Below are positions 1 to 59,181 of a DNA stretch of 64,000 nucleotides, in pieces. Within the stretch, counting starts at the first letter, position 1, and each line of letters opens with the position of its first letter. The DNA comes from Paraspadella gotoi (lineage: Eukaryota > Animalia > Chaetognatha). The notes below the pieces were generated by a model. It was given only the letters and a program-made list of their open reading frames with translations. It made no database searches and was not told where the DNA came from. The DNA is taken from positions 5,268,740 through 5,332,739 of the forward strand of contig CM119263.1 in the NCBI GenBank assembly GCA_051294375.1, written 5' to 3'. Both the position numbers and the translations under genes were made by a program.

Positions 1-191
1 CACTGCACCCAATATCACAGCCTGCATTATCCACTGAAATGGGACAGAAAATGTTCGTTGTTTATATTTAATGTCCAAATAGTTTCTCACTCCTAGCCCT
101 AAATGGTTCTAAAAATTCTAGATCTAAAAATTCGCAGTCAATGATACCCAACACTTAAAACATTCAACAGGAGAAATGAAAAGCGTGAGAA

Positions 192-2650
192 CTACAACTG
201 AACTGTGCCATAATAATCGTCCTCGTCCTTGGCCTCTTGCAAGTACCAACTCTGCATCTTTGACGGCATCTTGGTAAGGATGAGGCTGCCGTCTGGATTC
301 TTGAGTTCATCGTTGGCCGGCATGTGGCCCGTGTCCCCGAGTTCCCTGACGAAGACGAGGCCGTCGGGGCGGATGGAGAGCCACGTGATGCTTCCGTTGT
401 GGAGACTCATACGCAGCCAGGCCTCGGGTGGCAGTTGCAGGGCGCGGCAGACGAAGTAGCGGATCACGTTGGCGTGGGTCACAACAACTTCGTACGAGTC
501 GCTCTTCTGAATGGGGACGAAATGAAGGCGGTTAAAACGTCGGTTAAGAAAGAGAAACATTGAAACAAAATTTTCTCTTACCTGATTTAAATCGGCCCGA
601 TGAAGGTATTTCCTGTAGGCGGCTTCAATTCTAGCGCCGTCCTCGTAAAACGACGACGACGACGACGACGACGAGTTGGCGCCGATGCTGAACTTTTGAT
701 TAGAGACGAAGGACTCGGGAGCGCACTCGAGCAGCAGGTCGTCCTCGAGGGTCTCCATGTCGGGTAGATGTCCGCGGAGAATCGAGACGGACTGCTTGCA
801 CCGCAAGGCACTAGAGTGGATGATCCTAAGAAAAAGATTAATTTTGAAAGTCATCAAATTGGCTAGATAGGATAAATATTATATCATTTTTAGCAAAAAT
901 GAATTTGAGATTCAACAACGATTTATTTATGAACGGACATGTTTCTGTTGGACTCAAATTCTTGAAGAATCACTGAAACTGTCAACGTCTCTCCTATTTG
1001 TGGCTTGTTTAATAAAGAATTGGTTTATACTCTAATTAATTTTAATTGATGATCATTACGTATTAATTTTATACAGATCACGTGATATTATTATAAAAGC
1101 CAGAGTCGGGGTTTTTATAAGAGTCATTTTTTAATAATTTTATAATAAGCCCGCTCTTGATCGCTTGATTAGTGCTAAATATAAGGTGATGCTCATGGCT
1201 GCTCGAATATGTGTTGCAGGTTATGAATCATTATATCAGAACTGTCTATGAACAACTGACAAACTTCAAGCCGATCTATGCCGTATCAAGGTAAGCCATC
1301 CTACAAAAATTACCGCTCATCATTTCGACTTTGTTTTCAAGTTTTCATCAGCGTTTTGAGAATAATATGAAATTTTTGTGCAAAAGAAGAGTGTGAGAGT
1401 GAGAAAGAAAAGGTGAAAGTTTTCAAACATAGTGGTGAGATAGGATAGTGGTCAGAGGTGAGGGCAGGCGTAAGGTAAGGACAGATTGAGTTAGTTTTTG
1501 AAAGTAAGTGAAAATGGTCAGAGAGAGAGAGAGAGAGAACATAAATGATAAATTTGTTCAATGTATAAGTGCTGGAGGCCTTAACCCACCAAAGCCTGTC
1601 CAAAGTCAGGGGCTTATTTATTAAATGATTGGATAATTTTTATACGGGTTGTACCAATTTCATAAAATTCAGCTCCTTGTATTTTGATGCTGGTCGGAGT
1701 ACAATATAGTATTCCCCGATCTAATACTTAAGGGAGAAGTCTTTTCATACAATTGAAACATTCTTTGAAATATTATACCACTTCATTGATAGGGAATCCA
1801 GGAACTCTGGGAGTGAATAAACGAGACTGTGAAAGAGTCTTGATTGAAAGCTTGCAGGGACCTGCTATGTCATTATCTTGTAAGAGTGATGGAGGCCTGA
1901 AACCAAAGCTTGTCCAAAGTCAAAGATAGCTTATTTATTAAATTAATGGATAATTTTTATATTGGTTGTACCAATTTCATAAGTTAAATATTAAAGTTGA
2001 TTAAACAATCGGCATATAAAACTTTCCAAGTGCACCTTTCAAAAACCGACCCTCCCAATACTAGACTGTTCCCCATCACCACACCTTTTAAAGGGCAACC
2101 CCAGAGTGACCAGACGCTTCCCCGTCAACTCGAGCTGCGTTTTTCCCAACGAACTGAGAAAGTGAAGGTTGGTCTCCCCGTTGGTGATGTAATGCCCGTG
2201 AAGGATGAAAAAGAGGTGGCGGGTGTGCTTGGGCCGCGCCCGATTGGTGAAGCTGGGGTCCCTCAGATCCCAATTGTAGTTCCACTTGGTCGGTCTGTCC
2301 ACCACCTCGGCAAAGTCGGCCAAATCGCCACTGAACGAGCTACTCCCCCCTTGCTGCTGCTGCAGGTCCCAGCTGCCGGAGGCGCAGCCGCCGCCTAGAC
2401 TTAGATCGGAGTTGTTTTGTCGCTTGAGTCCGAGGGAAGACGCGGAACCGAAGCCCGAAAGGGCGTTGCCGGATGATGATGTTGTCGAGGCCGACAAACC
2501 GACAACGGGCGTCTCTTCACCGACGCTTCTAACTGGCGACGCCGCTCGCACACGACGCATGGAAAAAGTGAAGACGGCGGCGCCAATAGCGACTCCGGCG
2601 CCGGCCAACGCCACGCCCTTGAAAACTTTGCGACACAGCGCCTCGCCCAT
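192..2650 (-). CDS. PGAM5: PGAM5-like mitochondrial histidine-phosphatase-family protein, about 3 exons (2650-~2089, ~827-583, ~509-192)
   Basis: N-terminal TM segment; WNYNWD (WDxNWD motif); RHLFFILHGHY; FYEDGARIEAAYRKYLHRA; THANVIRYFVCRALQLPPEAWLRMSLHNGSIT; LGDTGHMP. GT-AG introns join the ORF fragments. Confidence 0.93.
905..946 (-). repeat. Fragment of the hammerhead/Penelope-like family seen at 41252-41452 (3' part only)
   Basis: Minus strand reads GAAACATGTCCGTTCATAAATAAATCGTTGTTGAA, similar to 41387-41427. No CTGANGA core upstream. Confidence 0.5.
960..1322. repeat. Dispersed intronic repeat; second copy at ~3410-3985 is interrupted by an insertion
   Basis: Colinear similarity, e.g. 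agcccgctcttgatcg, gctcatggctgc, gcaggttatgaatcatt, agccatcct...ttaccgctcat in both copies. Confidence 0.8.
1573..1985. repeat. Short repeat unit (~90 nt) at ~1573-1665 and ~1891-1982, with a third partial copy at ~8865-8910
   Basis: Shared ggaggcct..aacc..caaagtca...ttatttattaaa...ggataatttttata...gttgtaccaatttcataa. Confidence 0.7.
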
Positions 2651-2905
2651 GGTGCCGTACAGTGACTTATCAAAAATTATTTTCTTTTTTTTTATTTGGT
2701 GAAATTTTTATCCACCGTTCGCTTCGCCAGTCCACACGACCTTACCCAAGGAAATCATAAACATTGTAACTCGCAATAGCTAAAAGCTTTGCGAGCTTTC
2801 GTGGCTCATAACCTTGAAAACGAAAGAAAGGGGCGAGGATATATAGGAGCAAGCAAATATGGCTCATCGCACAACAGAACAAGAAAGTAACAAAGAACAA
2901 AACTT

Positions 2906-4714
2906 TTATTTCGCTACGTCTTCTTCGAGGATTCGTCCTAACTTGTCCAATGCAAAGTTATATTCAATGAGTTGAGCCTCCAACGCCTCCTCCACTTTCG
3001 CCTCCAAATTGTCAAGTGTCACAAACTCTGGCGCCTCCATTTCCAGGCGTCGGGCGTGGGCGAAGGCTCGATCTCGCTCCCCCTTTCGGGCGGCGAGGGC
3101 GAGACCAGCCTCCACTGAGATACGCCTCTCGTTCTCTTTCCGTTTCTCTTTCATCTCGAGCTCCCGGATTTCGCCCACCTGGATAATTAAAAGCGGATCG
3201 AGGGTGTGGGGATCATAAGGGAAAAAATATGTTGATACAACAACAACGATATCCTCTGTCGTCACTGAATGAATTCCATGACTTCAGTCAAATAATTAGT
3301 GGCGCTTAATTACTATTATTTTTAAATAAATACATGTATTATATATATTTTTTTGACCCATGTCTTCCCCTTCTCCATTGAACAAAATATTTTCTCATCA
3401 ACGAATTTTTGAAGAATCAGCATCTCCTATTTGTAACTTTAATAAAACATTGGTTTATATTCTAATTGATTTTATTTAATTATCCTTTTACGCAGATCAA
3501 GTGATAATATTGTGATAGCCAGTGTCGGGATTTCAAGAGGTTTTAAGGCGTTTTATATTCAGCCCGCTCTTGATCGTTTGATTGGAGTTAAATATATGGT
3601 GATACGGTGGCGAACCCTAAATTCGCCTCTCGAATAGCTTGGTGAAATTTAGCTCATCCTATTGGCTTGAACAGCTAAGTACTCGTTCACCAACCCCGAG
3701 TTCCGGGTTCAATCCCCTCCCGGTCACGCTAGTTTAGTGTGATGGTGAGGGGATAAAAACGCCAGGGACACGGGGTGGTCACTACAGGTCCAAAGCCCTA
3801 AGCGCCTGCTGTCGGGAGATGTCTCACACCCCGGGCATAACACGTCTCCACGTTGCCATAATGCTCATGGCTGCGCGTATATTTGCTGCAGGTTATGAAT
3901 CATTGAATCTTTGATCCACTGACAAACTTTAAGCCTATCCATGTCGTATCAAGGTGAGCCATCCTGCGAATATTACCGCTCATTACCTCTTTGTTCCACA
4001 TGTCATTGATCTGCATCATCCTCTCGTGATGCTTGTGCTCTTCATAAATCCATCGTTTCTCCACTCCCGTGTCTAAGCTATCCAGTCGCGTCTTCTCTCT
4101 CATCAGGCCCACCGCTTGCTCCATGTCCACCTGAATTAGATATTTTAAAATTACATGTATAAATTTATATTTATTTTGAATTAAAATCCAGCAACCGTTC
4201 ACGACAATCATTGGAATCGGAGGCAAGTCATTCGCCTCTCAAACAAAAGGTTCAAACCGAGTTACCGCCTACTCCGAGGGGTTAAGTGGAACAGGGCTGG
4301 AAGCAATCGGCGACAGCCTAATCCGAAGATCAGGAACAGCTAATTTATGAATTTATTTAACCAAATCATAACCATAAATTATGGCATAATTCTGTCTTTT
4401 CACAATCAAATTTAAAATAACATCGCTTTTCTCACCAGATACTGTTTTTCCCAATCAGCCTTGAGCTTTTCCTCTTCGGGATCCAGAGTGGGATCGGGGT
4501 CGACTACCTCCAACTTGGTCGGGGCGCGGCCGAGCGATCGAGGCTTTCGCCCTTTCAGTTTCCTTTTGTCGAAACTCTTCAAACTCTCTGTCGGCGAGGA
4601 GAGAGAAAAGGCGCGATGGAATGAGGAGGGAAGGAGAGTCTGGGCTTCGCTCGACTCGCGGAGAGAGAGGGAGGAGCCGCGGCGGGCGATCGTAAATAAT
4701 ATTAATTTATTCAT
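2906..4714 (-). CDS. MRPS26: Mitochondrial ribosomal protein mS26, 3 exons
   Basis: Arg/Ser-rich presequence, RKPR...DPEEE, MQINDMWNKE and C-terminal FVTLDNLEAKVEEALE...YNFALDKLG, all typical of MRP-S26. Confidence 0.85.
3604..3860 (+). mobile_element. Short SINE-like element (family A), full-length copy nested in an older repeat
   Basis: B-box-like GGTTCAATCCC at 3706-3716; ends GTTGCCATA; absent from the paralogous site at ~1185-1195; further copies at 57728-57912 and 58834-59035. Confidence 0.8.
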
Positions 4715-5111
4715 TCTAAAAAGTTTAAATCAATGATCTAATCTTTAACGAGAAAGAATAAAACAGCAACAAACAGAATGACAAGGAAGTTCGGGACTAT
4801 TCGCAACATGCCTGAATGTGGACGGAGAGAAGGCTTTATATATGCGATTTTATTCGAATTACCTTCGTCTACATTCAGAAATTCTCAGTGGCTCAAAGAG
4901 GAAACGCACCATCCAAATGTATAATTCCACAGTATAATCATCGTCACTAATTGGACGAAATGGTTGAGCCTTGAACCAGACCAAGTCCGCATTTGAATTA
5001 AAAACTTCATTTCTTTGCATGGATTGCTTGGGACCCGCGATTTTTAATAATTTACTCTTTACTAAAGGGTCTTTAGTCTATAGCCTATAGTATAGGCTTG
5101 AAAAACAAGCT

Positions 5112-8100
5112 CTACCCAGATACATTATGAATAAGATTTTCAACATCCGAATGATCTTCCACTCTCACAACCTTCTCCCTATTTTTTAAGTTTTCTATCA
5201 GGGCTCCCCAATGGTCGTTGCTGCAGAGTTTTCGGGAGTTCCCCACAATATAAAGTCCGCGTCTCGCTCTCGTGAGGGCCACGTTTAATCTATGGAGGTC
5301 GCTCAAAAATCCAATTCCATCGTCGTCGCAGTTCGATCTCACGCAGCTAATTATCACGTAATCTCGTTCGCCTCCTTGATAAGAATCGATGGTCTGAATC
5401 TCAGCGTCTACTTCTCTATCCCCATGAGAAATGGTCAGCGCGTCTGAAATGGCATCGACTTGCGCTCGGTAAGGAGTTATGATGCCGACGCTGGACAAAG
5501 GCTCTGTCTTTCTGATTTTGAAATAGAGGGTAGCGACAAGGCGGGATTCGTCCTCGTTAAAGCGGGAGCCTGGGTATACCGTGGAAAAACTCTCTTCGCT
5601 CGACGTTAAATCGAATAATAAAAGAGGGCGAAGATTTCCCTCCTCATTTGTCGACTCGTCCGATAATAGGCGATCCTTATAAACGTAGGAGGAAGGAAAA
5701 CACGCAATTTCCGGATTCATTCGGTATTGCGTGGTCAGCATAAGACTTTTGTCATCAGGCAAAACATTAATCAATCTTTCGAACAGGGATCGCCTCAGCT
5801 GAGTGGAGGACGCAAAGGAAGAACATACGAAGGGAGGAAGTTGAAGATGATCGCCGACGAGAAGGATTTTCGAGGTCTTCGCCACAACGATGGGGATCAA
5901 CATGTCTAGGTCTGTGCCCTGCGAGGCTTCGTCAACGATCAAACAATCGAATTTTTTAGAAACGCAAGCGGTTTTTATAACATCAGTTCCGACGCAATTT
6001 AAAGTGCAGGCAATAATGTCGGCATGCTTCAGGGCATGTTCTACTTTTTTCTGCGGTCTCAAATACGTGATATCAGCGGAAATTTTATCCGATTTTCCCC
6101 ATCGAACGATTTTAAGCTGTTTCGCCCAATCGCAGCTCAAGAGTCGACGAAGAAGATGATCGATGGCGACGTTGGAAGGCGCACATAGAAGGATTGCGTC
6201 TTGTTTTCCATCGGGTTCGTCTCTCGTAAATATCGACTCCAAGATTCCAAGAATGACGTGAGATTTTCCGGTGCCTGGTGGACCATGAACAAGCACCATT
6301 TCGGGATATTCCGCGGCTGAATTTTTGTCCTTTAAAATCATTTCGACGGAGGAAAATATGGCTTTTAGTTGATTTGTGTTGAATCGATGATCATCAAAGT
6401 CCATTTTATTTATGGCGAAGATATTGGCTTTCACTGGGTCTAAAACAGCATCTTTAAAAGAAGATGTGTTCATATTGTATAAGGCATGGAAGTTACGCGA
6501 ATAAGACTTTACGGAGGATATTTCCTTATATATCACGTGTTCAGCTTTTCTTAAAAAAGTTCGAGATGAATTATCGAGGGATGTTTTGGCTATTTTTAGA
6601 ATTACCTTGAGGACATGGCCTTTTCTCTTGGAACAACTGACGTACGAGAGAAAAGGGTGCATTTTATCGATACAAACAACTGCGATGCTCTGCTCGCGCA
6701 GACTGCACTCATCCACCATTTGCTCCAACGAGATTTCACAAATTAGACTCAACAGCTGGAAATCATCTTTTAAATGCAGCAATGTCAGTTGCAATTCAAG
6801 TTTTATCTCATGGTCTGACAAATATTTCGCAATGCAATTAGCAGATTCGTGCAAAAGGCAAAAGGTCATCAATCGTTGGTATTCGGACAAATCGTTAAAT
6901 TTACCACCGCTTAAGTCTGGACTGGTAATTTGAGGGAGGGAGAGTTCTGTGTTGTTCATATTCAACTCGTCGAAACTCAATCTTAAAAGAGGCGACACAA
7001 TTTGGCTCTCGAATGCATTTTCACAATTTTCAACTGTCATGGATTTCTGGCTCGAAAAGCAGAAATCGTGGGAAGAGAAATGTCTAATAAAAAATTCTCT
7101 CCAAGCTGGTAAAGCGCTTGAAGGTATTTCTGCAGAAAGCAGACAATGAGGTATGATCGGGTCGTTGCAAAACTCGGTTACTTCACCATGATTTTTTATC
7201 AATTCCTGCACCTGATAAACAATATAAAAAGAGTTACATAAATAGTTATTAATTATAAAAAGGTCTTGAAAAAATTAAGCCTCGACACGACTTTACCTTT
7301 TTAGCATCCGCATTACGAACGGAAATCTTAAACTGGAGTTTTGGCTCTACAAGCTGAAGCGCCATTTTTCTCAAAGCACCTTTAACTGTATTGGAGACGA
7401 CGTCTGCAATGCCTCCGTTTAAATCCTTAATTGCTTTAACGTTTCTGACTCGGATATTTAATCCCTTCACAGGATTACCAATCAATGGGCCACTATTTAA
7501 AGCTTCGAAAATGCCTTCCAATATTAGTTCGATTACCATTTCGTTAGCCAAGCAGTCGTCAAAAATTACATCATTACAAATGCTTTTAGTTTGAGGTTCT
7601 AACTTTAACTTAAAATACGTATTTTCAAAGACAACTGTCTCGGACAACACAACAGAGTCATCAGCAGGTACCTCAGGAAATATAAACTTTGTGGTGCCAA
7701 AAGTTACTTTGTTAAACAATACCCTTATTTTATCTTTAACCTTGGATAGATGATTCTCAGATAAACACCACAGCTCATAATCAGAATCCCAATTCAACTT
7801 TATCTGTAGGAAGGGATCCTCAAACGAAATAACGCGCAATATCGAATCTAAATGAATTGCAAAATTATTGGCTTGAACGGTGCATTTCACAAGCGTGTAT
7901 ACCGATTCATTTTTCAGGGCGCAAATTCTTTTGATCGAAGAATCTCTCGGAAAATAAGCAATTCCGTCCCCAACAGCCACATTCAACCATTCGACGACGA
8001 CAAAATCGTTAGCTTTTAAATCTGAGTTCACTTTCACAGAGTTCGGATTTATCTTGAGGCCCCGTTTCGCCTCGAGATTGAACTTCCGGGCGTGGCGAAT

Positions 8101-9438
8101 GAAATCCTGACCGTTCATTCCACCCGACAAGACTCTCAAATATGACGAAGGAACTTGGTCTTTGCCGCGAAAAACGTTTTTTAAAACAAGAGCTTCGAAG
8201 GGAAACTGACTCGAACGCGGCGGCGAATTTAATAAGATTGGAATGAGGGATGCGAGCCCTTTCAAACTTTGTCTCCGACTCGAGTTGAAGAATACGAGAG
8301 GGATGCCGAGACCTGAGATCGAGACACGGCGTAACGCGTTTATCAATTCACTTTCGTTGGAAAAACAATCGAGGGAAAGAAAGACGTCATCCAACTCCGC
8401 CAGAGCCATCACTAAATCCGTGCGGCGAAAATCCAACTCTTGCTTCAACTTTCCAGGAAAGTATTTGGAAGAGATCAAATCGTAGATATGGTAATCATTT
8501 TCAAAATATTTAAGGTATTGTAATGAGAGCAATTTAACTCTTGACATTTGAGAAAAGGCCGTCACGAATTCCTCAATCGACTTTTCCTAAGTACGAAGGA
8601 TTTAAAAGATAATATTTTTTTTTCAAAGCAGAACGTCATGAGCTTGCGACAAAAAAAGTATTACCGCCCCTCTCACGTCCAGCGCCATCAAAGAGGGTTT
8701 CCCAGATTTGACTGCGAGGCCGACGTTTCTGAGTAGAACGGGATCGATTCCATTGGCAAGATTTCCGACTAATAACGTTGCATCCATCGCCGTGATCGCC
8801 ATTGACACATCCGCGCCGTAAAACCCGCGTTCTATTTAAAAGATAACAAGACTAAGAGTAAGAGGGAGGCCTTAACCCACAATAGCCTTTGCAAAGTCAA
8901 GGGGCTAAATAGCTATTATTGGTTGGCCCACAGAGCTAATTAATGTTTTTTGTCCCGGTTTTATAGGGAATTTTTACGAATTCCATAATCGAGAAACTGC
9001 TAAATTACTCCTAAACCCGTATGTATCCTTACCGCAAAGTTCCATTACATTCAAAATTAATTACTAGTGCTTCTAGCCATTGGTCCATCGAAAGTTTTCT
9101 CAGAAATGTATGAAGTTTCACCACAAAGTTTGGCTCTACCTAAACCCGTACGTATCCTTACCGCAAAGTTCCATTACATTCACAGTCGTCCTACCGCGAA
9201 CAAAAGAATCAAGAAAAGGCATTTGATCGCAATCAACGCGAGAGAAAACCGACTTAAACACATCTTTACGACCGACCAGACAAGGAAGAAGGGACTTGTC
9301 GGTAAAATGATCGGCTCTGACGATGGCGACGGCGCTTGAACGTTTTTCACGTTCTTTCGTGAGGCCGGAAGCGAAACGGAAAAGTCGGAATCGATTGTTT
9401 TTATTAGAAACCACAATTATTCTCAATAACGAATTCAT
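5112..9438 (-). CDS. Chimeric protein of about 1277 aa: degenerate EF-G/GFM2-like domains I-V fused to a Upf1/Sen1-like SF1 helicase. Exons 9438-9162, 8831-8665, 8586-7297, 7211-5112
   Basis: Three GT-AG introns join in frame (277+167+1290+2100 nt). EF-G-like segments: ADVSMAITAMDATLLV, LINALRRVSI..IPLVF, YLRVLSG, ISFEDPFL..SENHL, EGIFEALNSGPLIGNPV, LVEP..AEIP. Helicase motifs: GPPGTGKS, CAPSNVAID, DEASQ, GDHLQLPP, QYRM, TIDSYQGGE, RLNVALTRAR. Confidence 0.85.
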
Positions 9439-9531
9439 ATTTCTAAATTAAAAACAATGAGCCAATTATCATCGGTAAATAAAAAATTGACTAGACGGCG
9501 CACTAACGTGGTCGTTTCCAAATACATAGAT

Positions 9532-11360
9532 TCAAGAGAAATTAAGGATGAGATCAAAGGCGGTAAGTTCTTCGTCTTCCATGTGCGTACGGAATAGTTG
9601 ACCGTGCTGCCAAGCGTTGGATCCAACACCTCCGGAAATAGAAGCTTTGATTTCGAAAGAGATGCAGTCTTTTAGGTCCACCTCCGTCCATGGCTTAATT
9701 AAAACGAAATGTTTATTTCTAAAAAACGAATTAAAACGTTGACTGATATTTCACTTTTTTTAAGGTAACTACTAACTATCATGACGGTGGTTTCGCCGTC
9801 CTGGGGTGAAAGTGTGGTGGAAAAGGATTCGGTGCTCAGAGTCCACGAAATCGAGGCGTTTTCGAAGATTTTCTCGGATCGACGGATTTGCAACAGTTTT
9901 ATTTTAAACCCGCTGCCTGTCAAAACGATTTATACGTAGAAGGAAATGGTTGGGATATTTCTTCTTCATCCCCTTCTCGCTCCCTATGATGATGATGATA
10001 ATTAATGATTGATAATGATAATCATCTGAATTCAGATGATCCTCTCTTTCGTCATACATGTATCATTTTGTCTTATAATCTTTTTCCTCTTTCCCATGAC
10101 CCAAATCCTCTCCGTCCCACTTCTCCCTTCTCTTCTCTATAACTAATCTCCCCCCCCTTCCATCAATCCATCCAATTCCTACCCAGACGCGACAAACCTT
10201 CGAGATTGAATTTCCAAGAAATTGTTCCCTCCTCGGTCCCTTTCGCCCTCGCCAAGTACACCATTCGCCAATCATTCTCCACTTTCCTCACGACGTTTTT
10301 GCTCTCGAAACAAAGGGAATACCATCCGGTGATTAAGTCTCGCTTTTCGTCGTCGCCGCCGCGGATGTAGAGGTCGCCGACGACGAAGTATCGGATTCGC
10401 ATTCGACGGCGGCGGAATTCGCGCTTCGTCGGTCGAATCTCTTTCCCCGCAACCGAGTCGAGACTCGCTTCCCCGCGGGAGATTCGCCAAGAGAGGGAGC
10501 CAGACTCGCGACCGCTAAGTTCTCCCTTTGGGATAGGATTAGAGGATGGATTAGATGAAGGATTAGGGAAAGAAAGAAATGGATTACGGACGAGGGACTG
10601 AATATCCAAATTGAATGGAATATGGATCAGAATATCTCGACGAATTCAAATCAATTAAGGGATACATTTAAAATAAAGAGATCACGGCGGCCGTTTTTAG
10701 GTCACACTAAAAAATAGCGTGAGGTCATCCCGGCCGACTGTCGGTCTTTAAAGTTGACGGCATGGACGACGAGAAGACCCTAACGCCTTTTCTTGTTTAT
10801 CATTATTTGGCATCACAAAGATTTCTTCACCTTTTTGACTTGGCGAGAATCGCAGGCAGAAAACTCGGCCAACTCTTTAATGCAACGACGAGTCAGTTCC
10901 TCTTTTCGAGAAGGAGAGACCGATGATTGCAGCTTAGCGCGCATGCGCAAGATGACAGAGACGAGATTCTGAGAGAAGTTAAGAGAGCAATGATGGAATT
11001 GTAGAAATTTGAAAAGGAGAAAAACTCATTGAAAACACTTATAATTATTCTTCACATAACGTGTTGAGTGAAAAGAAAAGTCGTAAAGTTATCAAGAAAA
11101 CAAGAAAAAAGTTTGGAAGGAAAAAAAAAGAAGGTCAATGAGCTCTCACCGCTTCGTCAATCTCCGTTCTACGCCAAAGGACTTCCCGCTGTTTGGTCGT
11201 GTAGCGCCAAGTCACGTCCTGAATGTCGTCGACGCTGAAAGCGAAGACGTAGGTGAGTTTCTTTCCCCACCCGTGCTCGTAGAGGAGGGGCTTGTCGTGT
11301 CCCTCTTCGCAAGTGTCACCGTGGACCCAACGATCCTGATCGAGAGGGATGGAGGAGATT

Positions 11361-11412
<52 letters not shown>

Positions 11413-13703
11413 TCTTCACCGACCTGCGACTTGGAATAATATTCCGTCCAGACGTGATCCGTCCAGTCGAGAACGTAACGCGTCTCGAATCCGCAGGCGC
11501 GGGAGATGAGGCCGAAGCAGTTGGCCCACTCGCCGCAGCGGCCGCGCCGCGTCTCCAGCAGCTTGCCAGGATTGTTGTAGCGAGGGAATCGCGTTTCCTC
11601 GTGGCAGTCGTCGCAACTGTTGTTTGGGGAAGGGAGGTCCAAGACGTCGTGACTTAATATCTTATTCTTGTGTCAAACGATAACAAAAATATGCTCAGTC
11701 GAACGAGAGAGAGCGAGATCAAGGATACGTGTTAATCAACTTAATCAACTCATTTTAATCTTTACACAACCAAAATAATTAGACTCCGTCTCTGTTACTC
11801 TCTTTTTTTCCTACGACCCCAACTCCTCTTGTCCAACCTGTAAATCTCCACTTGTCCCGCGTCCCACATCATCTCGGCGTCATTGGGCGTGGAAACGCCG
11901 AATGACGAGGTGCTGGAGCCGCACCAGTCGCAGGCCGGCTTGTTGACCCACTTGAAGAAATCGCGTTTGAACCATCGAATCAGCAGCAGCATCTGCAAGT
12001 CCTCCAGGGCGAGGGCCGGCGCCGCCTCGGCAGTAGCCGACGCCGAAGCCGCCTCGACAGTAGCCGACGCCGAAGCCGCCTCGACACGTTGACTGATATT
12101 TCACTTTTTTTAAGGTAACTACTAACTATCATGACGGTGGTTTCGCCGTCCTGGGGTGAAAGTGTGGTGGAAAAGGTTCGGTGCTCAGAGTCCACGAAAT
12201 CGAGGCGTTTTCGAAGATTTTCTCGGATCGACGGATTTGCAACAGTTTTATTTTAAACCCGCTGCCTGTCAAAACGATTTATACGTAGAAGGAAATGGTT
12301 GGGATATTTCTTCTTCATCCCCTTCTCGCTCCCTATGATGATGATGATAATTAATGATTGATAATGATAATCATCTGAATTCAGATGATCCTCTCTTTCG
12401 TCATACATGTATCATTTTGTCTTATAATCTTTTTCCTCTTTCCCATGACCCAAATCCTCTCCGTCCCACTTCTCCCTTCTCTTCTCTATAACTAATCTCC
12501 CCCCCCTTCCATCAATCCATCAAATTCCTACCCAGACGCGACAAACCTTCGAGATTGAATTTCCAAGAAATTGTTCCCTCCTCGGTCCCTTTCGCCCTCG
12601 CCAAGTACACCATTCGCCAATCATTCTCACTTTCCTCACGACGTTTTTGCTCTCGAAACAAAGGGAATACCATCCGGTGATTAAGTCTCGCTTTTCGTCG
12701 TCGCCGCCGCGGATGTAGAGGTCGCCGACGACGAAGTATCGGATTCGCATTCGACGGCGGCGGAATTCGCGCTTCGTCGGTCGAATCTCTTTCCCCGCAA
12801 CCGAGTCGAGACTCGCTTCCCCGCGGGAGATTCGCCAAGAGAGGGAGCCAGACTCGCGACCGCTAAGTTCTCCCTTTGGGATAGGATTAGAGGATGGATT
12901 AGATGAAGGATTAGGGAAAGAAAGAAATGGATTACGGACGAGGGACTGAATATCCAAATTGAATGGAATATGGATCAGAATATCTCGACGAATTCAAATC
13001 AATTAAGGGATACATTTAAAATAAAGAGATCACGGCGGCCGTTTTTAGGTCACACTAAAAAATAGCGTGAGGTCATCCCGGCCGACTGTCGGTCTTTAAA
13101 GTTGACGGCATGGACGACGAGAAGACCCTAACGCCTTTTCTTGTTTATCATTATTTGGCATCACAAAGATTTCTTCACCTTTTTGACTTGGCGAGAATCG
13201 CAGGCAGAAAACTCGGCCAACTCTTTAATGCAACGACGAGTCAGTTCCTCTTTTCGAGAAGGAGAGACCGATGATTGCAGCTTAGCGCGCATGCGCAAGA
13301 TGACAGAGACGAGATTCTGAGAGAAGTTAAGAGAGCAATGATGGAATTGTAGAAATTTGAAAAGGAGAAAAACTCATTGAAAACACTTATAATTATTCTT
13401 CACATAACGTGTTGAGTGAAAAAAAAGTCGTAAAGTTATCAAGAAAACAAGAAAAAAGTTTGGAAGGAAAAAAAAAGAAGGTCAATGAGCTCTCACCGCT
13501 TCGTCAATCTCCGTTCTACGCCAAAGGACTTCCCGCTGTTTGGTCGTGTAGCGCCAAGTCACGTCCTGAATGTCGTCGACGCTGAAGGCGAAGACGTAGG
13601 TGAGTTTCTTTCCCCACCCGTGCTCGTAGAGGAGGGGCTTGTCGTGTCCCTCTTCGCAAGTGTCACCGTGGACCCAACGATCCTGATCGAGAGGGATGGA
13701 GGA

Positions 13704-13777
<74 letters not shown>

Positions 13778-15877
13778 TCACCGACCTGCGACTTGGAATA
13801 ATATTCCGTCCAGACGTGATCCGTCCAGTCGAGAACGTAACGCGTCTCGAATCCGCAGGCGCGGGAGATGAGGCCGAAGCAGTTGGCCCACTCGCCGCAG
13901 CGGCCGCGCCGCGTCTCCAGCAGCTTGCCAGGATTGTTGTAGCGAGGGAATCGCGTTTCCTCGTGGCAGTCGTCGCAACTGTTGTTTGGGGAAGGGAGGT
14001 CCAAGACGTCGTGACTTAATATCTTATTCTTGTGTCAAACGATAACAAAAATATGCTCAGTCGAACGAGAGAGAGCGAGATCAAGGATACGTGTTAATCA
14101 ACTTAATCAACTCATTTTAATCTTTACACTATGGCAACAGCCGGGTTGCCTGTGATGCCATTGGGATGGGGCATCTCACTGTTGGCTTTGGGGGCTTCCG
14201 ACCTCAGTGACGCTCAGTCACTGGCGCGGTTACCCTAGGACGGTCTCGCTTTGCCAACGCAGAGGGAAGTCGTTAGGACTGTGGATGGAACACTACGCCT
14301 GGGATGGTGTGTTCCCCTCTGAGCCAATGGATTTGGCTGAAGGATGGTGGACGTGAGGCGGTGGAATATACCGCCACAGGATCCCCGAGTCAAGACATCA
14401 CTCAGGTTCCTCAAGCCTGAGAGGTGTCTGACAAGACTGTTACCATAGTGGGAGAGAGAGAGAGCGCGAGTTGTGGGGCATAGGCGTTTGTCGTAGCGTA
14501 CCCAGGGGCATAGCATTTGTAGCGTACCCTGAGAAGGTTGGTGTTCGATAGTAGGGCTCACCACTTATGGCAACAGCCGGGTTGCCTGTGATGCCCATTG
14601 GGATGGGCATCTCACTGTTGGCTTTGGGGCTTCCGACCCTCAGTGACGCCTCCAGTCACTGGCGCGGTTACCCTAGGACGGTCTCGCTTTGCCAACGCAG
14701 AGGGAAGTCGTTAGGACTGTGGATGGAACACTACGCCTGGGATGGTGTGTTCCCCCTCTGAGCCAATGGATTTGGCTGAAGGATGGTGGACGTGAGGCGG
14801 TGTGAATATACCGCCACAACACAACCAAAATAATTCGACTCCGTCTCTGTTACTCTCTTTTTTCCTACGACCCCAACTCCTCTTGTCCAACCTGTAAATC
14901 TCCACTTGTCCCGCGTCCCACATCATCTCGGCGTCATTGGGCGTGGAAACGCCGAATGACGAGGTGCTGGAGCCGCACCAGTCGCAGGCCGGCTTGTTGA
15001 CCCACTTGAAGAAATCGCGTTTGAACCATCGAATCAGCAGCAGCATCTGCAAGTCCTCCAGGGCGAGGGCCGGCGCCGCCTCGGCAGTAGCCGACGCCGA
15101 AGCCGCCTCGACAGTAGCCGACACCGAAGCCGCCTCGACAGTAGCCGACGCCGAAGCCGCCTCGACAGAAGCCGACGCCNNNNNNNNNNNNNNNNNNNNN
15201 NNNNGAAGCCGCCTCGGCAGTGGCCGACGTCGAAGCCGCGCCTTCTTCATACATTTTGACGCCGGCTAAAAGATTACGAGCGTTTGTCTCGATGTCTTTG
15301 ATTGGGACAAGAGCGCGGGCTCGTTTTTGAAGGAAAGGATCTTCGTATCTTCTCGCTGTGGCCAATCCCGACTCGAGTTTGCGAACGAATTTCAATTCCG
15401 ACAAGGGAGAAGGCGGAGGGGCGGCGCGGGCGGGAAGAGACGGAGGAGGGGCGGTGGGGGCTGGAGCGGCTGGGAGAGACGGCGGCGGATTGGATCCAGC
15501 GCGAAGCTTCTCTAAATCGTCGTGCACTCTTTTCAAGTTGTCAAGCGGATCGTCGAGAGGTAGGATGAGGGCCTCCACATCGCCCTCACATTCCTTGAAG
15601 CCCATAGCGAAGAGACACTCCATCGCCCCCGCCGCCGGAAGAAGTTGGGTCGTCACCACAGAAGATGAAATCTTTAAGTATCATAATTTATAAGAAATTA
15701 TTATTGTTTATTAAAGACACATCTCTAAACGCGGCGACGTACTTTAAGCGAACGGAACTTTTGCTCCGTCGGCTTGGAGAGAATGTTGCGGGAAATTCGG
15801 AGCAAAGCGTCGCAGGCGGAATTGCAAATGTCCGCCTCGTTCTCTTTCAGTTCGGAGACGCAATCAAAATTTTCCAT
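9532..15877 (-). CDS. NGLY1: Peptide:N-glycanase (PUB, transglutaminase core, PAW domains); internal exons appear twice in this assembly
   Basis: PUB-like N-terminus ([15 protein letters not shown]); [15 protein letters not shown]; [25 protein letters not shown]; [12 protein letters not shown]; [14 protein letters not shown]; [14 protein letters not shown]; [12 protein letters not shown]; stop at 9532. Confidence 0.95.
9737..15150. repeat. Near-identical ~2.35 kb tandem duplication of NGLY1 internal exons (9737-12086 vs 12087-~15150; the second copy carries a 689-nt insertion)
   Basis: Near base-for-base identity; junction at ~12087 (cgttgactgatatttc). The second copy has two 1-nt deletions (~12178, ~12628) and lies next to an N gap. 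Confidence 0.92.
14130..14818 (-). mobile_element. Non-autonomous element (family B) with a ~250-nt direct repeat (A-B-A' layout) and a probable ACAC target duplication
   Basis: Empty site tttacacaacc at 11761 vs filled tttACAC-tatggcaac...ccgccaca-ACAC-aacc. 14130-14378 repeats at 14566-14818. Another copy lies at 58425-58583 in the opposite orientation. Confidence 0.88.
15070..15240 (-). repeat. Coding 27-nt minisatellite (ASATVEAAS)n in NGLY1, spanning an N gap
   Basis: gaagccgcctcgacagtagccgacgcc units; also at 12020-12086. Confidence 0.85.
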
Positions 15878-41251: not shown

Positions 41252-41452
41252 ATTTAGAAAAAGTTTAAAATTTGTTTTCATCAACAATTTGTTTTATTAA
41301 ATATACGGACATGTTTCGACTCTTTTGGTTGCTACTACTACATCAACTGCTATTAACGCTGATGAAGACTCGCAACCAAAAGAGTCGAAACATGTCCTTA
41401 TATTTAATAAAACAAATCGTTGATGAAAACCAATTTCAAACTTTTTCTAAAT
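41252..41452. mobile_element. Inverted-repeat (~80-nt arms) remnant of a probable Penelope-like element
   Basis: 41252-41332 is reverse-complementary to 41372-41452. Contains a hammerhead core and AATAAA. A 15-nt direct repeat atattataattctat lies at 41201-41215 and 41451-41465. Confidence 0.7.
41351..41404 (+). ncRNA. Minimal type I hammerhead ribozyme motif
   Basis: CTGATGA (41359)-A-GACTC-loop-GAGTC-GAAAC-AT-GTC (41396): conserved core, 5-bp stem II, short stem III and a GUC cleavage triplet. Stem I is weak in this copy. Confidence 0.7.
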
Positions 41453-56357: not shown

Positions 56358-59181
56358 TCAGCAAAGAGTCTCAGTTTCATAAAGGCCGATAATATCGAGC
56401 ACAATGTTTTGAATTCGTCCCAACGAGATGTCGTCGGAGAGAGCGATGAACCACGGGGTTCCGTCGACGCGATTGAGCGGGACTTCGATCCCGTAACACT
56501 CGAGGGAGAGGAAGATGATGGCGATCGAGAGATGAGACGGGTCAACGTCCAGGCAGATGGAAGCGCTGTGGTAGCAATCTCGCAACACGCTCCAGCAGGC
56601 GTTGGTCAGAGCCGCCAATCGCTTGTCGGCCAGAGCCGTGGCCGACGAGTCTCGTCGGTCAACGTCGGCGAAGATCCATTGGGTGAGGCTTCGCAAGTGA
56701 TAACAGAGGTAAGTGTGGGGGAGATCGACCTGGCGAGAGGGAAACGAGCTTGTAGCCGAAATGTTAAAATTCATCAAACGTTTGAGGTCACGTGACTCAC
56801 GCGAAGATTAAAGCCCAAAACCCGGATGAGGAAGAGTTCGCATCGAACAATGGCTTCGCGAAACAACCAGTATTTCTCTCCAACTTCGAGCGGAGGCTTT
56901 TTGTCGTTCGTCGTACTGGGGTAAAAATAAGGGGAGGACAATCGATCTCTATGTTTTAAATAAAAAAAACCAATGAACTTACACATAAGTGACGTTGAGA
57001 ACGTCTCTGATCTTAACGTGTTCTTCCGTCGCCTTTCCCGCTAAATACAAGCATGTTGCCGAGACCAGAGGCGCGTCGTATTCCTTGGGGAAACTTTCCA
57101 CACCCTCCTTCGAAGAGTCCGCTCCGCATTCCCTGCATCGTGGGCATTTAGTTTAAGATTACATACTAGGGTGGAGCGATGAAAAGCTCGAGACATGTGA
57201 CAATATTTATTTGGTGACTCTATATATGTAAATTATAAAATTCAAGTCCTTTTAGTATTGTAAATTATAAAATTCAAGTCCTTTTAGAATTGTCCCCATC
57301 ACTTTACATTATTCGTATACATATATTGTAGTAACAAAAACAAATTTCTCTTTGCTAAAGTCCTTTACAAATTTTTTTGAAATAATATCCTTATAAATTT
57401 TAAAATTAGTTGTTTCTAGTCGGATTTGCTTACCAGCAGATTCCGACTCTATAATACACTTTGTCGGTCCGCCCCCACAATTTTGTCGGTCATTCACTTA
57501 AATCATGTCAGAACATTGAATTATGATAAATTATGCAAAAAAAAAAAAAAAAAAATGTCCGTCCGTCTGTAGGTCCGTCCGTCCCCCTTAGCAAAAAACT
57601 CCAATTACTGATGATTGGATGGTTGGATTGGAATGAAATTTTGTGTGTGGGTAGGAAAGTGTGTGATTCAGCAGAATATAAAGTTTGGATGGAATCCAGG
57701 AGTGGAAATGAGTTTGCATGAAAAAAACCTGCAGAGACCACCCCATGTCACTGGCGTGTTTATGCCGACACCATCACACTTTAACCAGCGTGACCATGAG
57801 GGGATTGAACCCGGAACTCATGGTTGGTGAACGAGTACTTAACTGTACTGAACTTACTGTACTTAACTGAGATTCACCAAGCTATGCGGGAGGCGAATTT
57901 AGAATTCGCCACAATGCAAGTTAAAAAAATTATTTATTTGCAGTATAAAAGGACCGACGCGGGTCTATTAACTCTCTCCTTCACCTCCTCTTCATCCTCC
58001 TCCCAGGGATTCGGGGACGCGTTCACGAGGTTCAGTTCACCTTCTCTCTCTTCTACTAGTTTCTCCCCTTTTTTACCCTCATGATTTTGTCGCCGTATAG
58101 ATTTTCCTGACGTCAACATATTATTTTCCCGCATTCTCCTGACTTTACTTCTCGTTAGGATATTACCTTTTCAGAGGTTTGTACCATAGTAACAGTTCAG
58201 TTTAATTCCTTGCAAGCATTTACATGTATTAGCGCAGCCATTGGTTTGCTAATTGCTATGGTACGATCTGGTATAATAAGTTAGGATCACAAATTGAAAG
58301 ATTATCGCCATTTATCATCTGATTAGCTGATTACCGCTTAATTATCTTAGGCAGATCCGTCATTGTTTGCTCAAACTTGTTATTTTTAAGAACAGAATCC
58401 GATTCGTCAGAAAGAAACTTTTACGTTCCATCCACAGTCCTAACGACTTCCTTCTGCGTTGGCAAAGCGAGACCATTCTCGGGTAACCGCGCCAGTGACA
58501 GGAGGCGTCACTGAGGGTCGGAAGCCCCCAAAGCCAACAGTGAGATGCCCCATCACAATGGGCATCACAGCAACCCGGCAACCCAAGGCCGCGAAAAATG
58601 ATTAAAAAGTTACGTTATATAATAGTTTCTATTACAGAAAATTGAAAAATTAGGAATTTAGTACTTTTTCCCTATTTTTAACACAGAAGACATCGGAATT
58701 TCTGATAACATGTTTTATATTTTTGGTATAACTTTTATGTAACATATTTCAAATAAAATTTTTTTTCTCAAGAGCTCCACTCTATTACAATCTACATACA
58801 TAGTTGTGCGATCTTCTAATATAAACAATCTATTATGGCAACGGGTAGACATGTATGATGCCCGGGGTGTGAGGCATCTCCCGACAGCTGGCGCTCAGGG
58901 CTTGGAAACTTTAACAAGCGTGACCATGAGGGGATTGAACCCGGAACTCACGGTTGGTGAATGAGTGCTTAGTTGTCCATTGGGACGAGCAGAGTTTCAC
59001 CAAGCTATACGGGAGACGAATTTAGGATTCGCCACACTATTTTATTTTACCGGCAAAATCGATGAAAGAAAGCGCAGGCTGTGGCCGTCGTCTTCGCTCC
59101 GAGTGAGAGTCTTACGGCACTCTGCATCAAAGTCCGAATGTGACCGAAAATTTCCTTGGAGTGCGTTGCTCGGGGTGCCAT
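56358..59181 (-). CDS. CCNQ: Cyclin Q (FAM58A / cyclin M); first intron of ~1.9 kb is repeat-rich
   Basis: LMQSAVRL..TATACAFFHRF; LVSATCLYLAGKATEEHVKIRDVLNV; YWLFREAIVRCELFLIRVLGF; LPHTYLCYHLRSL; WSVLRDCYH. Confidence 0.88.
57505..57725 (+). mobile_element. Possible Helentron/DINE-1-like non-autonomous fragment
   Basis: A-tract followed by a (GTCY)n microsatellite at 57556-57582 and a tgaaattttgt segment. Termini not resolved. Confidence 0.4.
57728..57912 (-). mobile_element. Family A SINE-like copy, 3'-truncated
   Basis: Reverse complement of ~3607-3790 including GGTTCAATCCC. Confidence 0.8.
58425..58583 (+). mobile_element. Family B partial copy
   Basis: Reverse complement of ~14575-14730. 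Confidence 0.85.
58834..59035 (-). mobile_element. Family A SINE-like copy with an internal deletion and both termini
   Basis: Minus strand begins GTGGCGAA and ends GTTGCCATA, as at 3607-3860. Confidence 0.82.

Follow-up and report, generated by a model that had tools for sequence, protein, structure and literature searches.

A mitochondrial EF-G2-like body without GTP motifs and a prong-less senataxin core in one reading frame of the chaetognath Paraspadella gotoi

Background

EF-G2mt (also known as GFM2, RRF2mt or mtEFG2) and senataxin (SETX) are both conserved and linked to disease, and each has a compartment and a job of its own. In the window considered here, the whole of a 64,000-nucleotide (nt) stretch from the chaetognath Paraspadella gotoi (GenBank assembly GCA_051294375.1, contig CM119263.1, positions 5,268,740 to 5,332,739), a gene on the minus strand had been predicted from the sequence alone to fuse an EF-G-like module in frame to a helicase. 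This original prediction raises the question whether the two modules indeed belong to one gene and, if so, what such a protein might do. As outlined in the following sections, one reading frame unites a body related to EF-G2mt but devoid of GTP motifs with a senataxin core that lacks the prong, and the product lacks defining features of both parent families. The fusion is real and transcribed, and it is probably lineage-wide; very probably a single polypeptide is the main product and the fusion is old and has been kept by selection.

One reading frame across two modules

The gene consists of four exons between positions 9438 and 5112, the introns of which all have GT-AG ends and phases 1, 0 and 0, and which together encode 1277 amino acids (aa) with a single terminal stop, in keeping with the four canonical exons and about 1277 aa originally predicted (Table 1). 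Within exon 4 the two alternative frames contain 55 and 40 stops, as compared to none before the end in the fused frame, and this exon of 699 codons stays open across the boundary between the EF-G and helicase modules; the helicase half is free of introns. A second locus was not found when the 1277-aa model was compared by tblastn with the 64,000-nt window. That there is a single open reading frame and not two adjacent genes, as had been proposed, is supported by the lack of an in-frame stop and by the splicing of intron 3.

Evidence for splicing comes from assembled contigs of a single sequencing run, X1, which contains 0.91 of the words. The run is not recorded as RNA and its kind is a guess, but it behaves as RNA because nine of the 13 listed joints show GT-AG ends on the minus strand; its contigs cannot prove that one molecule spans the gene. 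Two further runs, X2 and X3, yielded no records, which speaks neither for nor against splicing. Introns 2 and 3 are spliced in X1, the contig depth at the intron 3 junction being 75 as compared to 2.4-7.9 for the pieces retaining the intron, and two long contigs stop at positions 7295 and 7213, i.e. at the splice sites of intron 3. No joint and no indel is listed for exon 4, and over exons 3 and 4 together X1 differs from the window by three single-base coding differences (one synonymous, two changing an amino acid) and by no indel.

An EF-G2mt body without GTP motifs

In a PDB search with exon 3 that gave 30 matches at E<=1, the best was human EF-G2mt (7l20_w, E=2.4e-12, over residues 46-424), followed by archaeal EF-2 and bacterial EF-G. 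Compared with a profile built from 16 EF-G/EF-G2 proteins, the exon scores 104 bits, and a HMMER comparison with 1.84 billion representatives yielded 17 matches, all EF-G-like by sequence and at most 777 aa long, the sole named animal match among the 10 looked up being RRF2mt. The mitochondrial EF-G/GFM2 origin originally suggested is supported by these matches, whereby the assignment to G2 rather than G1 rests on best hits because the EF-G tree contained no EF-G1mt sequence. Atlas features of exon 3 point to EF-G-family clusters at 0.89, which is a lead only, and a structure model from the single sequence (pLDDT 33) is too low in quality to judge the fold.

By alignment to the EF-G/EF-G2 profile the EF-G domains are in order and near full length. 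However, no G1-like, G4-like, GITI or GELH motif could be found in aa 1-660, and in the well-aligned region of exon 3 the CGS at the G5 position has become FFN and the GMGELH has become CLSENH (GELH to SENH), while domain IV loop 1, the tip loop, is changed and reads VVFEN. Since G1- and G4-like motifs are missing and CGS and GELH are lost, we firmly infer that the EF-G half no longer binds GTP, a reading of the motifs that holds without an exact placement of G1. In this respect the GTPase-dead EF-G-like module with domains II-V in order has been borne out by motif loss and profile alignment, although not in all its details: the ADHFTDKS was put at G1 by forcing a global alignment in a region where exon 1 is no better than its shuffles, and this placement is not supported, and for the ALDV placed at G4 an ungapped reading gives DVRG, the loss of the motif standing either way. 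A separate case of EF-G erosion is an unfused EF-G-like protein from Amoeboradix (P0101), which has altered G motifs and a branch of 4.0.

The beginning of the protein is less clear. In a shuffle test against EF-G, exon 1 had z -0.5 with 260 of 400 shuffles as good, so that its homology is not significant; exon 2 alone reached z 1.9, and aa 80-148 reached z 2.4 (8 of 400 shuffles as good), a weak signal. Singly, exons 1 and 2 matched no Pfam family, no relevant PDB chain and no EF-G2 profile. Once exon 1 is joined to exon 2, aa 83-140 line up without gaps with the stretch of EF-G that begins ahead of G3 and ends shortly before G4, which favours the join. The first 25 residues comprise five basic and no acidic ones, with R-F-A-S at positions 21-24, and G1 would be expected at position 44, as compared to 32-76 in seven canonical EF-G2mt-like precursors; a simple pattern scan gave no cluster resembling a nuclear localisation signal (NLS). 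From its composition, then, a mitochondrial presequence is plausible. The earlier claim of such a presequence is favoured by this basic, acid-free N-terminus with its R-F-A-S but lacks the join of exon 1 to exon 2 in X1 (see below).

A senataxin core without the prong

Exon 4 matches the Pfam families AAA_11 (E=1.8e-41) and AAA_12 (E=5.5e-52), just as had been anticipated, and the superfamily 1B (SF1B) motifs Q, I, Ia, II, III, V and VI are all present. A structure model based on an alignment of 31 sequences (pLDDT 82.8, pTM 0.83) has Sen1/SETX as its top structural matches (8ftm_A with Z 38.0, a root mean square deviation of 2.7 A and 593 aligned residues; 8ram_O with TM 0.76). Upf1 and IGHMBP2 were rejected as the helicase type with Z 29 as compared to 34-38 for Sen1/SETX, and most of their core structures align only from about residue 100 of the model. 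Of the "Upf1/Sen1-type" helicase of the original prediction, only the Sen1/SETX part can accordingly be retained. The best NCBIfam model is IGHMBP2-like but below its cut-off, and Atlas features of exon 4 point to generic SF1B clusters only.

The alignment with Sen1 starts at residue 55-58 of exon 4, corresponding to Sen1 1100-1102, and brace, stalk and barrel precede RecA1. The Sen1-specific brace is reported to span residues 1097-1149 (PMC5452015); because the match begins at the brace, the EF-G and helicase halves abut. The N-terminal domain of SETX has no match (PF12726), and its place is occupied by the EF-G-like part.

The helicase, which had been described as intact, is so only with respect to its ATPase motifs, as a deletion had been overlooked. 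Motifs Ia and II are 75 aa apart (80 in the homologue P0001, see below), in contrast to 151-199 aa in the seven Sen1/SETX-like proteins, of 13 tried, in which both motifs could be located. About seven residues (aa 962-969) stand where yeast Sen1 has about 100 (1456-1555), i.e. subdomain 1C, the prong of about 90 aa, is missing. Deletion of residues 1461-1554 in yeast Sen1 is reported to leave RNA binding and RNA-dependent ATPase activity in place but to abolish unwinding and termination, and to be lethal (PMC5452015). As the part needed for unwinding in yeast is gone, a single-strand translocase or remodeller of ribonucleoproteins (RNPs) fits better than an unwindase.

The domain V junction and the age of the fusion

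Intron 3 divides EF-G domain V, and the second half of this domain is expected at the start of exon 4. In comparison with domain V, aa 579-635 gave z 2.9 with 5 of 400 shuffles as good, and were modelled as helix-strand-strand-helix at low pLDDT. A search with residues 1-420 of exon 4 gave, as the top two of nine matches among 3219 candidates, the unnamed ENA proteins P0001 (E=1e-31) and P0002 (E=2e-28), each with three members. Both are 32-36% identical to the helicase of the window (P0001 36% over 637 aligned positions) and both share the loss of the prong. In a quick tree of 26 rows, from which two rows without a P-loop pattern were skipped, they form a clade with the window helicase (SH-aLRT 99) over paths about 2.3 changes per site long; this clade falls outside those vertebrate and arthropod SETX clades that have support, its placement beside SETX being drawn open.

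Because P0001 and P0002 begin with what appears to be the second half of domain V, the fusion looks old. Residues 15-75 of P0001 match Pfam EFG_C (E=0.054, profile positions 23-80), and pairwise z values against domain V are 3.2 for P0001, 1.6 for P0002 and 2.9 for the window protein. By profile score, shuffles were equal or better in 3, 104 and 65 of 1000 cases, respectively, and hhalign placed a joint profile of the three lineages on domain V at E=0.036 and a probability of 1.4%. Another unnamed ENA protein, P0099, is a degenerate EF-G2-like open reading frame that covers just the region of exon 3 and contains 17 residues past the EP of domain V and then a V, which is the same break as in exon 3, while P0001 resumes after a Q in register with canonical EF-G2. 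We infer from these ends that P0099 and P0001 may be gene-caller fragments of the same intron-split gene. A scan of metagenome contigs (2 of 64 parts) gave at least 80 loci, which were generic helicases.

The locus

Table 1. Features of the fused gene (positions in the window)
Feature	Position	Strand	Description
exon 1	9162..9438 (277 nt)	-	aa 1-92; presequence-like aa 1-24 (9438-9367), then presumed decayed first half of G domain
predicted intron 1	8832..9161	-	330 nt, GT-AG, phase 1; splicing not seen in run X1
44-nt direct repeat	9010-9053 and 9139-9182	.	98% alike; copies exon 1 donor site; brackets short interspersed repeat (~9080-9120)
exon 2	8665..8831 (167 nt)	-	aa 93-148; colinear with EF-G switch II to G4, motifs lost
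intron 2	8587..8664	-	78 nt, GT-AG, phase 0; spliced in X1
exon 3	7297..8586 (1290 nt)	-	aa 149-578; end of G domain, domains II, III, IV, start of V; divergent EF-G2mt
intron 3	7212..7296	-	85 nt, GT-AG, phase 0; splits EF-G domain V; spliced in X1
exon 4 (whole)	5112..7211	-	2100 nt
exon 4 start	7041..7211	-	aa 579-635; apparent second half of domain V, stop-free run into helicase
exon 4 remainder	5112..7046	-	aa ~634-1277; Sen1/senataxin core: brace, stalk, barrel, RecA1, RecA2
P-loop	6284-6261	-	helicase part of exon 4
DEASQ	5933-5919	-	helicase part of exon 4
site of missing subdomain 1C (prong)	6039..6062	-	aa 962-969
stop codon	5114-5112	-	helicase part of exon 4

Around intron 1 the contigs of X1 are complicated by the 44-nt duplication, which provides this intron with two identical donor sites. 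One contig keeps 8832-9022 and jumps 129 nt between the two copies of the repeat. The skip was rejected as an intron, there being no GT-AG inside the repeat on the strand of the gene, and is likelier to be a collapsed repeat or an insertion polymorphism. A short repeat within 9010-9182 is common to many other X1 contigs, with a summed depth of up to 1145 in the bin.

The neighbours, likewise on the minus strand, are a PNGase with PUB, transglutaminase and PAW domains, the stop of which lies 94 nt upstream, and, downstream within 164-4736, MRPS26 (Pfam E=3.5e-12) and a PGAM5-like phosphatase; the latter two are mitochondrial proteins, which is circumstantial only. Farther genes in the window code for ubinuclein, an ETO-like TAFH protein and a chitin synthase, the names PNGase, PGAM5 and ETO being a reading of Pfam matches. 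Contigs of X1 cross the gene borders unbroken, connecting the helicase with MRPS26 and the PGAM5-like gene (2084-7213) and the PNGase with the EF-G exons (7295-11616), and T-rich AG acceptor-like sites stand immediately before ATG 9438 and ATG 4714. Operon-like transcription with trans-splicing would fit these observations, as would overlapping untranslated regions.

Of the PNGase, the 3' part is tandemly duplicated (9736-11767 and 12086-14129, 98.9% identity), which is either a recent duplication or an assembly artefact, and the second copy has a frame change in the PAW exon. Elsewhere in the window there is a self-complementary stretch of about 200 nt (41252-41452) that is 89% identical to its own reverse complement, and there are dispersed, partly intronic repeat families, 74-94% alike, at 990-1320, 3423-3983 and 57727-59036, and at 14140-14729 and 58425-58579.

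Possible function and alternative explanations

As a tentative best explanation, held at somewhat short of even confidence and drawn largely by analogy, the fused protein might dock on mitoribosomes and use ATP to translocate along RNA, in their rescue or recycling. Docking combined with translocation is favoured because it is the simplest use of a full EF-G body joined to a prong-less SF1B core. The steps of this proposal are to be taken with falling confidence, from the single main product to import, translocase, docking scaffold and finally the replacement of GTP by ATP. Exon 1 is rather likely to be joined and to direct import, so that the protein would enter mitochondria, where it might dock on the mitoribosome. 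By analogy with the yeast prong deletion, the helicase half would have RNA-dependent ATPase activity and translocate 5'-3', unwinding duplexes only to a small extent, and the EF-G half might serve as a nucleotide-free docking scaffold for the factor-binding site of the ribosome and not as a splitting enzyme. ATP-driven pulling on RNA could then replace the GTP-bound, RRF-assisted splitting by EF-G2mt, in rescue, recycling or late assembly, with movement on single-stranded RNA dislodging stalled or finished ribosomes or bound proteins. As for its origin, a GFM2 gene may have lost its stop and been extended into a SETX core, either adjacent or retroposed, with the joint exactly at the brace. Whether the lineage has in fact swapped GTP-dependent mitoribosome recycling or rescue for a single-chain ATP motor, in which a dead EF-G2 docks on the mitoribosome and a prong-less senataxin, carried by the fusion out of the nucleus into mitochondria, pulls on RNA so as to split or clear it, is more doubtful.

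In mammals, mitoribosome splitting by EF-G2mt is reported to need bound GTP but not its hydrolysis, and EF-G1mt is reported to carry a C-terminal extension that clashes with RRFmt (PMC8203779). A precedent for the proposed pulling is HrpA, which is reported to split collided ribosomes by pulling the mRNA (PMC11419001).

A number of observations weigh against this explanation. Without G motifs and with a C-terminal addition of 640 aa, canonical recycling is unlikely. All RNA evidence stems from contigs of one run of guessed kind. As to RNA across 7297/7211, which had been sought as evidence for the fusion, intron 3 is spliced in X1, but the shorter arm of the junction contig counts only 26 letters, fewer than the 31 required for bridging. 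Splicing of intron 1 is not seen in the X1 contigs, which omit minor paths and are therefore no proof of its absence, and the contig path via this intron stops after 111 codons and would yield a peptide of 111 aa only. The domain V signals are each weak, though all at the expected place. The link of P0099 to the fusion family is uncertain: it joins exon 3 in the tree at 91/90 with a long-branch warning, by BLAST canonical EF-G2s are at least as close to exon 3, and a count of shared rare residues (18 of 383, the figure for an unrelated long branch being 19 of 403) does not single it out. Finally, no fused homologue was found with exon 3 among 7987 candidate proteins of 780-2225 aa, none of the 76 matches to the helicase profile among 7993 proteins of 1356-3870 aa carried an EF-G Pfam domain (lengths of 1225-1355 having been left out of the helicase searches), and the 1.84 billion HMMER representatives gave no full-length fusion, their longest match being the 777 aa mentioned above. 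These are weak negatives, and the missing full-length homologue would be expected of a lineage without an annotated genome, yet it is a gap.

To this list belongs the erosion of the EF-G half, which retains only 32 of the 78 columns conserved in the canonical rows and has a terminal branch of 4.8 as compared to a median of 1.1, and which may therefore have lost ribosome binding. Erosion on this scale beside a well-kept helicase, and the altered domain IV loop 1, would also suit a mitochondrial fusion whose EF-G half has left the ribosome and acts as a general scaffold or an import carrier, the senataxin-derived translocase attached to it serving in the turnover of mitochondrial RNA, in the handling of R-loops or transcripts, or in the remodelling of RNPs. 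We regard this as unlikely, given that ordered EF-G domains of near full length are more than an import signal requires and that the domain V-like segment has been retained in three diverged lineages. Less likely again is the formation of two products, be it that Met636 (ATG at 7040, at the brace) serves as the start of a protein comprising the helicase only, on an mRNA trans-spliced or started at 7211, or that the precursor is cleaved after import in the manner of yeast Arg5,6. Met636 does lie at the module boundary, the border-crossing contigs and acceptor-like sites fit operon-like transcription, the junction depth of 75 is below the mean of 163 for the flanking multi-gene contigs, an R-H-F-S-S motif occurs at aa 621-625, and cleaved mitochondrial tandem precursors have been reported (PMC8734313). 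However, the cis-spliced junction is present at about 10 times the level of retention, an EF-G product could for want of a stop not finish domain V without entering the helicase, P0001 and P0002 have no Met at the place of Met636, and 20-residue windows across the linker, which are about neutral in P0002, have an acidic net charge of -2 to -7 in P0001 and the window protein, unlike internal cleavage signals of the targeting type.

A nuclear or cytosolic senataxin-like helicase, in which a captured, decaying GFM2 has replaced the N-terminus of SETX and which has no mitochondrial role, might start at Met103 without exon 1. Senataxin and Sen1 are reported to work in transcription termination (PMC5452015), and neither splicing of intron 1 in X1 nor significant homology of exon 1 speaks for the longer form; but the prong, which in yeast is essential for termination and viability, is missing, the simple scan gave no NLS-like cluster, and the N-terminus is presequence-like, all of which makes this proposal improbable. 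Very improbable, and largely refuted, is a recent unselected read-through or an assembly artefact. The databases searched contain no full-length fused homologue, and the duplicated PNGase blocks nearby indicate that the assembly may contain errors. In turn, an independent transcript-like run fits exons 3 and 4 with three base differences and no indel, the exon of 699 codons is open over the boundary, and diverged homologues have the same arrangement.

A 2021 review describes the factor that splits no-go mitoribosomes stalled with peptidyl-tRNA as unidentified (PMC8786322). If the fused protein acts on mitoribosomes, it would be a natural model for the splitting of such peptidyl-tRNA-stalled mitoribosomes, and it would mean that an EF-G fold without GTP can serve as the address for an ATP motor. 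Even without such a role, a conserved, naturally prong-less senataxin core offers a ready test of what SF1B enzymes do minus unwinding. If no normal GFM2 remains, the question arises how the lineage recycles its mitoribosomes.

Comparison with known systems

No description of a fusion of EF-G2mt/GFM2 with senataxin, or of EF-G with a helicase, was found in the literature searched, most subscription journals being outside its scope. In a survey of translational GTPases the word "helicase" does not occur in the main text; fusions were removed from its alignments, and its supplements could list one (PMC4342817). By the searches made, the EF-G2-senataxin architecture is new, which agrees with the original statement that no protein of this kind had been described.

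EF-G2mt is the best sequence match of exon 3, and its domain order and a presequence-like N-terminus are kept in the fused protein. In contrast to EF-G2mt the fused protein lacks the G1 and G4 motifs, CGS and GELH, has an altered domain IV loop 1, and adds about 640 aa where EF-G2mt is reported to need a short C-terminal end beside RRFmt (PMC8203779). With the Sen1/SETX core it shares brace, stalk, barrel and all ATPase motifs, and these proteins are the top structural matches of its helicase; however, it lacks the N-terminal domain, the C-terminal tail and subdomain 1C of SETX, and has an EF-G body attached instead.

Two unrelated modules behind one presequence are also reported for the mitochondrial tandem precursors Arg5,6, Atp25 and Rsm22-Cox11 (PMC8734313). 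Their junctions contain a targeting-like cleavage signal, whereas the linker of the fusion is short and, by a crude charge scan, acidic, the one R-x-F-S-S lying inside domain V and not being conserved in P0001.

Snu114 (with Brr2) and Ski7 (with Ski2) are translational GTPase paralogues in which an EF fold serves as a scaffold beside an RNA helicase; they are, however, chains separate from their helicases, are cytosolic or nuclear, and still bind GTP. Bacterial HrpA and eukaryotic RQT/ASCC3, which are SF2 enzymes, offer a functional analogy only, in that they split stalled ribosomes by ATP-driven pulling on the mRNA; they have no EF-G module, whereas the protein described here belongs to SF1B and would move 5'-3'. 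If it indeed works as a single-chain motor on mitoribosomes, it would represent a mitochondrial equivalent of HrpA and RQT, assembled from unrelated parts.

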